Of a stretch of DNA of 44,855 bases, positions 28,701 through 30,487 are shown piece after piece. The notes beneath the pieces were generated by a model, which ran no database searches, was not told the origin of the DNA, and saw only the letters and a program-made list of their open reading frames with translations. The stretch's first letter is position 1. Every line of letters starts with the position of its first letter. This stretch comes from a phage: NCBI GenBank assembly GCA_012164735.1, contig GCA_012164735.1_4544.1, one strand, 5' to 3'. The position numbers and the translations under genes are program-made.

Positions 28701-29190
28701 GATGACGTCCTCGTTTAACCATGCTGGCGGTAGCGCCACATACAGCCTTAAGGCTGGCGTGACGTATAACGGGACTTACTATGATGCCGGTATGCAGCTT
28801 TCCGTCGTGGCGGAAGGTGGCGCGGTTAAATCACGCATCGCGTTCAAGGCGGACCAGTTCTACATCATGCACCCATCTAACGGGTCGCTCTCGTCCGCGT
28901 TTATCGTTGACGGCGGGCAGGTGTATATTGACACGGCACGCATCAAGAACGCGTCTATTAACTTCGCGCAGATCACGGACACGCTGCAATCCAATAACTG
29001 GAATCCAGGTAACAGCGGCTGGCGTATCGCGAAGGATGGCGGGGCGGAGTTCAACAACGTTACGGTACGCGGCAACTTGTTCGCAACTACGGGTAACTTT
29101 GGATTCTCCGGCGGGTCAGTGACTATCGACGCAACGGGCGTCAACGTGCCATTACCTGGAGGGGGCAGGGTGAAAGTCGGGACGTGGTAA
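25744..29190 (+). CDS. Tail tip / host specificity protein (lambda J-like central fiber)
   Basis: 1148 aa following the I-like gene. Confidence 0.85.
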   Translation: MTIIYDVTGHKGGGGKQHTPQETPDSLHSLAKIRILLALGEGEFEGIPDPNELRQRVYLDGTPIQNADLSDNFPGARVEFRPGTQHQDVIHGFSAVESEQTVGVKLEQGQPWVRQISDTSLDAVRIRIGIPALYTNEDNGDLVGGRIDYKIVVYTDNADPREFTFAAVGKTMSLYERDHRIELPSNVNTGWRVEVIRTTADSTSAKVVNDIQVQSITEIIDARLRYPLTALLFVEFDAKAFQNIPRVSIKCKGRKVLVPNNYDPVNHTYSGNWDGTFKRAWTDNPAWHWYDICITERFGLGRRVKPQMLNRYALYQIAQRCDQMVSDGNGGQEIRFKNDMYIQSQTDAWTVLKDLAAIFAGMTWWGNQMLNIVSDQPVAAVSHTITNASVIDGRFDYASGSQKTRYSTFSVAYGNPKNHYEDAIATGQRVELVRRHKINRLDITAIGCTRESEAQRRGHWALISNQLDQQVSFKVGMEGLFFIPGSVVAIADTNISGGFETRGGRLLSDPGTRTVLNTDSEITFRPGDKFLVRTDSGNVETREIASVNGNQVTLKTALDADPIPDQPFCVDGDDIQLQKFRITDLEYDDATSTFSVRGIEYNDSKYDAVDNGARLDPGIFTQVPDGVMKGPESVTITPSQISSQGQLITNVDIVFPPVKDAVVYEIQWRRTSLQNLEIQWGNDWVNIPRTASNGAHIPNVFSGNYQARVRAIGMGEISSPWVSSAITPVEGRLGGLNAPIITNAISGLHQILWKWNHNNAATDISYTELEVRKLGETEWKFLTNVPYPGSDYAQTSLEFGVYQQLRARVADKIGNLSDWSDPFDGQVSDKVDEYMQGLDDEFLTSEDGKHFQEAIDTIPQGIYESMLTDAQQLFNARAEYKGIYAEITVAYNVAADAHEAVAQLETLIGTRLDDAEASIHTLQTAQSTHEQAFAQYQQTVAAKFGEQEAAIQQVQTATADVAGALAEYKTQVAAQFGQQSAAIEQKMTSSFNHAGGSATYSLKAGVTYNGTYYDAGMQLSVVAEGGAVKSRIAFKADQFYIMHPSNGSLSSAFIVDGGQVYIDTARIKNASINFAQITDTLQSNNWNPGNSGWRIAKDGGAEFNNVTVRGNLFATTGNFGFSGGSVTIDATGVNVPLPGGGRVKVGTW

Positions 29191-29196
29191 ATGAGA

Positions 29197-29219
29197 AGGG
29201 GCCATCCGGCCCCTTTTTT
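29197..29219. terminator. Bidirectional terminator between J-like gene and the minus-strand cassette
   Basis: Stem aggggcc/ggcccct, loop atcc, T6. Confidence 0.6.
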
Positions 29220-30183
29220 AATAGATATTAGGAATGACGAGTAACGGGGTGGGTACGGCAATATTTTTGCCCGGCATTTGGAATTGCTGCCGTGAGTAGT
29301 TGCCAATAACGCGGTTTTTAGCGATGCGCACATTATTACCCGCCATTCGTATCCCGTTCATGCGCACATGGTTATAGCCGCTGTTGTTCTCAATGAGCGC
29401 ACCGGTATATGAAAGCTGGATCAGACTATTACCGATGTGCTGGTCGCCGCCACCGATATTAATCGTGCGGTCGTAGACAAACGGCTTGTTTACCGTCGAG
29501 AACGTGACCTGCCCCTGGTTGTTAGTCATGGTGATACCGGTCCCCGGTGAGGGCGGCGTATTGTTGAATATCACCAGGTCCATATCAACGGCAGCGCCTA
29601 CGTCGTCAATCCCGCCATAGGACGCATTACGGACAATGATACTTCCGCCATCGAAGCCAACCGATACGTTGCCGTCGTCCCAGCGCGCGAACGGGACACC
29701 GCCGACGGGAAGCGGCATACTTCCGTTTACATGCACGCGCTGCGCATATCGGCAGGTCATTAGCCGTGCGACGTTGGATATTGCGGTGAAGTCCGTTGCG
29801 TTAGCTACCAGTAAGCCCGCATTGCGTGACCCCACCGGCAGCACTTCCATAATCACCCCGCCCCATGTTGGAAGCCCGCTGTATGCGTTATAGGCATCCT
29901 CACCGCGCAAGGTGATTCCGCCATCCCCGTTACGTTGTATCGACGTCACATAAAACGGGTCTGGCAAGACCAGGGTCTGGTCGAATACTTCCATCACTTC
30001 TACCGGATTAGTTAGGGCAACGACCAGTTCGGACCCCGGTGTCAGCGGTGTGTTAATGGTCAGCGTCTTGTCAGACTGACAGCGCTGATTAAAGGTAGTG
30101 CAGAACGACGGAGCGCGAAGGCCCGCGGTTATCTCCATGACAGGTCTACCGTCGTTGTAGTCGATAAGTATTCCAGCACCCAT
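29218..30183 (-). CDS. Hypothetical Gly/Asn-rich beta-rich protein (321 aa; ATG 30183 preferred over GTG 30192)
   Basis: RBS gggag 9 nt upstream of the ATG; no signal peptide; repeat-like beta-strand composition. Confidence 0.55.
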   Translation of the reverse strand: MGAGILIDYNDGRPVMEITAGLRAPSFCTTFNQRCQSDKTLTINTPLTPGSELVVALTNPVEVMEVFDQTLVLPDPFYVTSIQRNGDGGITLRGEDAYNAYSGLPTWGGVIMEVLPVGSRNAGLLVANATDFTAISNVARLMTCRYAQRVHVNGSMPLPVGGVPFARWDDGNVSVGFDGGSIIVRNASYGGIDDVGAAVDMDLVIFNNTPPSPGTGITMTNNQGQVTFSTVNKPFVYDRTINIGGGDQHIGNSLIQLSYTGALIENNSGYNHVRMNGIRMAGNNVRIAKNRVIGNYSRQQFQMPGKNIAVPTPLLVIPNIY

Positions 30184-30185
30184 TA

Positions 30186-30407
30186 TTACCACTCCCGTGA
30201 TTTAACTGATACAGTACCTGAGAAATTGCCGTCGCTATCGGCAGATAGGCCAGTGAAGCGCATGTCCACGCCTCCGGCAGGGACTTTTTGCCCGTCAACA
30301 TAACGCAACATGCAGCTTCCGTAAGCCACCGTAATGCAATCACCGTTGTTGCGTTCTACGGCACAACCGGACAAAAGAACAGCACAAATCATAATTAAAG
30401 TTTTCAT
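30186..30407 (-). CDS. Small lipoprotein (73 aa), candidate superinfection-exclusion protein (Cor/Llp-like)
   Basis: MKTLIMICAVLLSGC signal peptide with lipobox LSGC; strong RBS aggag; location between tail tip and fiber genes. Confidence 0.6.
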   Translation of the reverse strand: MKTLIMICAVLLSGCAVERNNGDCITVAYGSCMLRYVDGQKVPAGGVDMRFTGLSADSDGNFSGTVSVKSREW

Positions 30408-30487
30408 GTTATCATCTCCTATATTTGGTTGAGTTTTAGTATTACACCGCTCGATCAAGAATGCAACCAATTTATGAGGATTTAGCT

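Follow-up and report, generated by a model that had tools for sequence, protein, structure and literature searches.

Between the J-like tail tip gene and the lateral tail fibre gene of a phage, two genes were found on the strand opposite to both of their neighbours, one encoding a 73-aa lipoprotein and the other a 321-aa protein. The locus raises the question of what such a pair does between tail genes. The window, i.e., the whole stretch of 44,855 nucleotides that was analysed, is by its sequence a Dhillonvirus genome, an E. coli siphovirus type. In nucleotide comparison, the 1.5-kb locus was closest to Escherichia phage vB_EcoS-22664B1 with 99.6% identity. Phage WFI showed 97.7%, and the BASEL phages Bas83 and Bas85 showed approximately 96% identity; these relatives, too, are E. 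coli siphoviruses of Dhillonvirus type.

Layout and boundaries of the cassette

The ORF map agreed with the initial annotation in placing a minus-strand cassette of the lipoprotein and 321-aa genes between the J-like and tail fibre genes, both of which lie on the plus strand (Table 1). The 2-nt spacing of the two genes was also confirmed (30185-30184). The cassette end given there, 30470, belongs merely to a mechanical ORF started at TTG, and the lipoprotein gene begins at the ATG at 30407. The order J, receptor-binding protein (RBP; the 321-aa protein) and lipoprotein, the last two on the opposite strand, was identical in Oekolampad, Rtp, TheodorHerzl, WFI and Bas85.

For the lateral tail fibre gene, the most likely start is ATG 30488, which is preceded by GAGGA 7 nt upstream and gives a protein beginning MAAGTLSV. 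This is the start annotated in Bas85, WFI and Oekolampad, where it leaves a gap of 80 nt; the ATG at 30461, a mechanical call, is an unlikely start. A Peptidase_S74 intramolecular chaperone domain was found at the C-terminal end of the tail fibre protein.

Table 1. Positions of the features at the locus in the window and of the Kuravirus homologues in their own records (SE, superinfection exclusion)
Feature	Position	Strand	Basis or family
SE lipoprotein gene, 73 aa	30186..30407	-	PF24052 / Rtp45 family, Oekolampad-type allele
Terminal RBP gene, 321 aa, DUF6453	29218..30183	-	Pfam, PDB match 9RPT/9RPW/9RQI chain C
GC-rich hairpin, putative bidirectional intrinsic terminator	29198..29213	both	Folding
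Intergenic region, 80 bp, between SE-RBP operon and lateral tail fibre gene	30408..30487	divergent	Conservation alignment
J-like central tail fibre / tail tip protein, 1148 aa	25744..29190	+	95% identity to Oekolampad J
SU10 gp19, 343 aa	L006:6059-7090		DUF6453, 2.2e-23
Bas86 gp16, 343 aa	L005:3659-4690		DUF6453, 4.5e-25; 9RPT_C match, 7.3e-12
SU10 gp104	L007:1735-2016		PF24052 lipoprotein, 2.6e-36; lipobox and cysteine pair

We infer that the lipoprotein and RBP genes form one minus-strand operon, and we extend this to their co-transcription and the timing of their expression. Downstream of it, direct folding gave a hairpin of the form GGGGCC-loop-GGCCCC. On the plus strand it folds with -19.7 kcal/mol and is followed by U6, and on the minus strand it folds with -15.7 kcal/mol and is followed by UUCUCAUUU. 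A terminator is annotated at the equivalent site in the WFI record. The bidirectional terminator proposed earlier therefore corresponds to a real hairpin, convincing on the plus strand and weaker on the minus strand, and it would be common to the J gene and the SE-RBP operon, which converge on it. The consensus scan for promoters and terminators missed this hairpin; folding and a conservation alignment were used in place of that scan.

A divergent promoter region had also been proposed between the lipoprotein and tail fibre genes. A candidate minus-strand promoter was recognized there by eye, i.e., TTGCAT (30466-30461), 17 nt, and TGT-AATACT (30443-30438). It lies in the 80-bp intergenic region, in which approximately 97% of the alignment columns are identical among the window, Oekolampad, Bas85 and WFI. 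The consensus scan gave no plausible promoter, and one of its implausible matches overlaps the start codon of the lipoprotein. The proposed promoter region is thus tentative: a conserved candidate site stands, whereas the scanner yielded none.

The upstream boundary of the exchangeable part could be placed by comparison with TheodorHerzl (Bas14), whose LptD allele at this site is Rtp-like, whereas that of the window is Oekolampad-type. The two phages are identical through the intergenic region to approximately the 14th nucleotide of the lipoprotein ORF. The alleles switch at 30394-30407 of the window (TheodorHerzl L008:1271-1290), and beyond this point the sequences are only distantly related. 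The intergenic identity indicates that the promoter region, 5' UTR and RBS belong to the Dhillonvirus backbone and that the coding cassette was exchanged.

The two proteins and their homologues

The N-terminus of the lipoprotein, MKTLIMICAVLLSG|C, is a signal peptide with the lipobox LSGC, and its RBS, AGGAG (30420-30416), lies 8 nt before the ATG. Both the lipobox and the strong RBS had been named in the initial annotation, and both were confirmed in the sequence. Cys15 is predicted to be lipidated after LSG|C, with Ala at the +2 position. G14 and C15 were invariant across five homologues. In the Pfam scan at E<=1, the protein was assigned to PF24052 (Phage_lipoprotein; E 1.3e-20, cut-off 27 bits) and to no other family, and it also matched PHROG 4281 (2.6e-32). 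The PDB sequence search gave 9RPS chain D, 'Phage lipoprotein' (Rtp45), with E 8.4e-8. The identity was 97% to the Oekolampad SE lipoprotein bas18_0026, 96% to the SO-1 phage lipoprotein and 40% to Rtp45. Cys24 and Cys32 align with Cys30 and Cys38 of Rtp45, for which a disulfide is described (PMC12685063), and both columns were invariant across the five homologues.

Membership in two other lipoprotein groups was considered and rejected. The match to PHROG 1119 (Cor; 5.6e-4) spans residues 1-30 only, i.e., the signal peptide and lipobox. For Llp, the PDB search at E<=1 gave Rtp45 only, and the Pfam and PHROG scans returned no Llp family. Llp chains are presumed to be present in the PDB because the Llp-FhuA complex has been solved (PMC9586334).

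The RBS of the 321-aa ORF, GGGAG, sits within the 3' end of the lipoprotein gene. Its ATG at 30183 was preferred over an upstream GTG as the start because the solved homologue also begins with MGAGILIDY. The protein contains 11.5% Gly and 9.0% Asn, and no N-terminal hydrophobic signal was seen in it; composition and N-terminus thus confirm the earlier description of a Gly/Asn-rich protein without signal peptide. It was assigned to DUF6453 (PF20051; E 5.5e-118, cut-off 25 bits), so that with the Pfam E-value of the lipoprotein both ORFs are far beyond chance.

In the PDB search, the 321-aa protein matched chain C of 9RPT/9RPW/9RQI over residues 1-321 versus 1-321 (E 4.6e-192), a chain labelled 'Tail fiber protein'. 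Chain C of 9RPT is the RBP of the Dhillonvirus Oekolampad (Bas18), gene bas18_0025. By direct alignment, the identity was 89% to bas18_0025 over the full length and 34% to Rtp44. At 89% identity to a solved chain, its fold is probably that of RBP_Oeko. Gln299, which hydrogen-bonds LptD Ser350 in the RBP_Oeko structure (PMC12685063), is conserved in the window protein. Because of its 89% identity to the Oekolampad RBP solved on LptDE, the 321-aa protein is considered the tail-tip RBP of the phage and thus a virion protein; in substance, this is the outcome that the initial annotation had named as counting against its own proposal. No virion proteomics was found in the literature examined, and a literature search for DUF6453 gave one match, which was irrelevant.

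The RBP family is labelled in PHROG 1265 as 'membrane protein; moron, auxiliary metabolic gene and host takeover'. This label was copied into GenBank for Bas85_0027 (L001:6118-7083), SU10 gp19 and several T1-like phages. In view of the solved RBP structure, the label is misleading. The same is true of the labels 'hypothetical protein' and 'DUF6453' that databases give to the family, since the protein is considered a virion RBP.

In comparison with Oekolampad, divergence at the locus is greatest in the RBP gene (81% nucleotide identity); J shows 89% and the lipoprotein gene 90% identity. The codon changes in the RBP gene comprise 112 synonymous and 36 non-synonymous ones, and this synonymous excess points to a functional, distinct allele under purifying selection. 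The 36 amino-acid differences are concentrated at residues 41-110 (80% identity), whereas the C-terminal two-thirds are 91-93% identical. The J protein is 95% identical to Oekolampad J overall, and its most diverged part is the tip, i.e., the last 68 residues (aa 1081-1148, nt 28984-29187; 80.9%). The changes at RBP 41-110 and at the J tip would fit a co-varying docking interface, and the GpJ tip has been reported as specificity-associated (preprint 10.64898/2026.04.02.716166).

On alignment grounds, the window RBP is a distinct sub-allele of WFI type. Given its 36 changes and the divergence of the J tip, its mode of engaging LptD might differ, which would make it a natural host-range or escape variant of the known module, although this is unlikely. 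If it were so, the WFI-type RBP could, e.g., tolerate resistance mutations in EL4/EL11 or naturally varying LptD loops, or alternatively it could escape the nearly invariant SE lipoprotein.

Proposed function and competing readings

According to Maffei et al. (2021, PMC8594841), 'bona fide RBP loci' lie immediately downstream of gpJ in Drexlerviridae, Dhillonvirus, Nonagvirus and Seuratvirus. Such loci code for a dedicated RBP, thought to be linked non-covalently with the J-like protein, as well as a cognate superinfection-exclusion protein. Alleles at these loci correspond to the terminal receptor, exchange there commonly leads to a receptor switch, and Oekolampad resistance was mapped to lptD (PMC8594841). 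LptD specificity was predicted for Bas83-85 by Humolli et al. (2025, PMC11990801), and for Bas83 and Bas84 also in the preprint named above (10.64898/2026.04.02.716166). A section of a 2023 article in J Virol on 'SO1-like' Dhillonviruses, which depend on FhuA, gives RBPs by accession only and leaves the cassette undiscussed.

The structural basis was reported by Dunbar et al. (PNAS 2025, PMC12685063), who solved RBP_Oeko on the LptDE lipopolysaccharide translocon by cryo-EM. RBP_Oeko lies deep in the lumen of the LptD barrel with an interface of approximately 1,700 square angstroms, contacts EL3-5 and EL11, and binds the translocon in an open state. With LptD Y671N or D352Y, both binding of the Oekolampad RBP and infection are lost. 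The RBP-LptDE complex formed very slowly in vitro, and with a degraded LptD jellyroll domain. Rtp44 and RBP_Oeko have 33% identity, and the receptor LptD is common to both. Rtp45 docks between LptE and LptM on the periplasmic side of LptDE. Its hairpin, directed up the LptD lumen, shifts EL4 by as much as 20 angstroms, so that the RBP can no longer bind. All of these results are from the same study (PMC12685063). SE_Oeko could not be expressed there, so its mechanism is taken from Rtp45, which is 40% identical to the window lipoprotein.

The cassette is very probably the terminal host-recognition module of a Dhillonvirus, i.e., an LptD-binding RBP together with its matching SE lipoprotein. Homology, gene order, the cysteines, the hairpin and the allele boundary were seen in the window, and LptD binding and exclusion come from the published homologues. 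The nearest relatives, Bas83-85, are predicted LptD users and would count in favour of LptD.

In such a module, the 321-aa RBP would cap the J-like central tail fibre, with J as the presumed docking platform to which it attaches. On a new host, the RBP would insert deep into the extracellular lumen of the LptD barrel of LptDE, contact EL3-5 and EL11, and bind the open state of the barrel, leading to irreversible adsorption. The 73-aa SE lipoprotein would be exported, cleaved and lipidated at Cys15. It would bind LptDE from the periplasm, push its beta-hairpin up the lumen and displace the LptD loop EL4. Because EL4 is displaced, the RBPs of incoming or newly released phages would no longer bind infected cells or lysis debris, and the exclusion lipoprotein would thereby protect infected cells and progeny from unproductive adsorption. 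The single operon, the 2-nt gap and the location of the RBP RBS inside the lipoprotein gene suggest that specificity and exclusion travel as one exchangeable unit.

The initial annotation had offered another reading, in which the lipoprotein and a non-structural 321-aa protein form a two-component system that excludes phages or modifies the receptor inside the infected cell. The genes are indeed closely linked, run antisense to the tail genes and may be served by a sigma-70-like promoter, and the PHROG 1265 label speaks of a membrane protein and moron. Surplus free RBP could also block receptors, as purified T5 pb5 blocks T5 infection (PMC9586334). However, the 89% homologue binds the extracellular face of LptD, resistance mutations map to that interface, and the 321-aa protein cannot reach the receptor from inside the cell because it has no signal peptide. 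The PHROG 1265 label is uncurated, and the Kuravirus homologues of the 321-aa protein are encoded within the tail gene block. Such a two-component system is considered very improbable. The larger partner had been regarded as lying outside the known systems, yet the T5 RBP gene pb5 (oad) adjoins llp (PMC9586334), and full-length identity to the Oekolampad RBP identifies this partner as an RBP.

The receptor-blocking role proposed earlier for the lipoprotein fared better, being backed by the identities to SE_Oeko and to Rtp45, whose complex with LptDE is solved. The lipoprotein may be regarded as a superinfection-exclusion factor against the phage's own receptor, akin in mode to Llp and Cor, and overall the earlier interpretation is partly supported. 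That it would be a Cor/Llp-type blocker of FhuA, as in T1, phi80, N15 and T5, is extremely improbable. The gene adjoins tail tip genes, as cor and llp do, and there is the weak PHROG 1119 match, but this match stops within the first 30 residues. Pfam gives PF24052 and no Cor or Llp family, the sole PDB match at E<=1 is Rtp45, and the adjacent RBP is LptD-type, not FhuA-type.

It was also considered that the architecture is the same but that the WFI-type allele has drifted to a non-LptD receptor, or to an LptD variant or state that Oekolampad does not recognise. The RBP gene is the most diverged of the locus, its amino-acid changes are concentrated at residues 41-110, and exchange at the RBP locus commonly switches receptors. 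Against this, a protein with 89% identity falls well within the LptD family, in which the receptor stays the same at 33% identity. The C-terminal two-thirds of the RBP and the cognate lipoprotein have changed little, and published predictions assign LptD to Bas83-85. Drift to another receptor or LptD state is therefore quite unlikely.

The preferred reading, an LptD-directed recognition and exclusion module, predicts the essential LptDE translocon as the terminal receptor of this phage, with a matching exclusion factor. The module is already known, because its genus, locus and mechanism are published and solved structures exist at 89% and 40% identity. Its practical value is in annotation, and no open question is changed by the window.

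Distribution and comparison with known systems

In translated searches, 433 phage records contained a member of the RBP family and 316 a member of the lipoprotein family. In the Klebsiella Webervirus-like phages RCIP0005 (OR532799.1) and Domnhall (NC_049835.1), the RBP homologue lies at approximately 19.7-20.6 kb and the lipoprotein at approximately 30.3 kb. Since these homologues are approximately 10 kb apart, contiguity of the RBP and SE genes is not universal. In the record group OQ221563.1, MG065663.1 and MG065667.1, 'Acinetobacter phage NJ01' showed 86% nucleotide identity to the locus and a Dhillonvirus-sized genome, and the 'Campylobacter phage A134/A127' records carried close homologues of the enterobacterial LptD module. 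The stated hosts of these records look doubtful.

Homologues of both genes were also found in podophages of the genus Kuravirus (Gordonclarkvirinae); Table 1 lists the DUF6453 proteins of SU10 and Bas86 and the lipoprotein of SU10. In these phages, the DUF6453 gene lies between the tail-needle gene, which it directly follows, and the ejection-protein genes, and the lipoprotein gene is at a distant locus. There is no mention of gp19 in the cryo-EM paper on SU10, and the literature searched contained no link between Kuravirus and LptD. As a hypothesis, Kuravirus podophages may use LptD as terminal receptor and exclude via gp104.

The closest known system is that of Oekolampad (Bas18), in which genus, locus, gene order and strand are the same as in the window. 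The RBP is 89% identical over 321/321 aa, and the lipoprotein and J are 97% and 95% identical. The window RBP differs by 36 substitutions enriched at 41-110 and by 19% nucleotide divergence. Rtp44 and Rtp45 of phage Rtp belong to the same Pfam families, DUF6453 and PF24052, and are encoded in the same order downstream of a J homologue. Rtp45 and the window lipoprotein also have the same layout of lipobox plus disulfide. In contrast, Rtp belongs to Drexlerviridae, the identities are 34% for the RBP and 40% for the lipoprotein, and its two ORFs overlap by 1 nt, whereas those of the window are 2 nt apart.

The pb5 (oad)/Llp pair of T5 is alike in plan: its central fibre is tipped by a monomeric RBP, and an adjacently encoded small, periplasm-facing lipoprotein inactivates the same receptor (PMC9586334). 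However, its receptor is FhuA and not LptD, and no sequence similarity was detectable in the Pfam and PDB searches. Llp works allosterically via the TonB-dependent transporter, in contrast to Rtp45, which displaces EL4 by direct steric action. Cor of T1, phi80 and N15 is likewise a small lipoprotein encoded near tail tip genes that excludes phages using its own phage's receptor, but it targets FhuA, and the likeness of the window lipoprotein to Cor is confined to the signal peptide.
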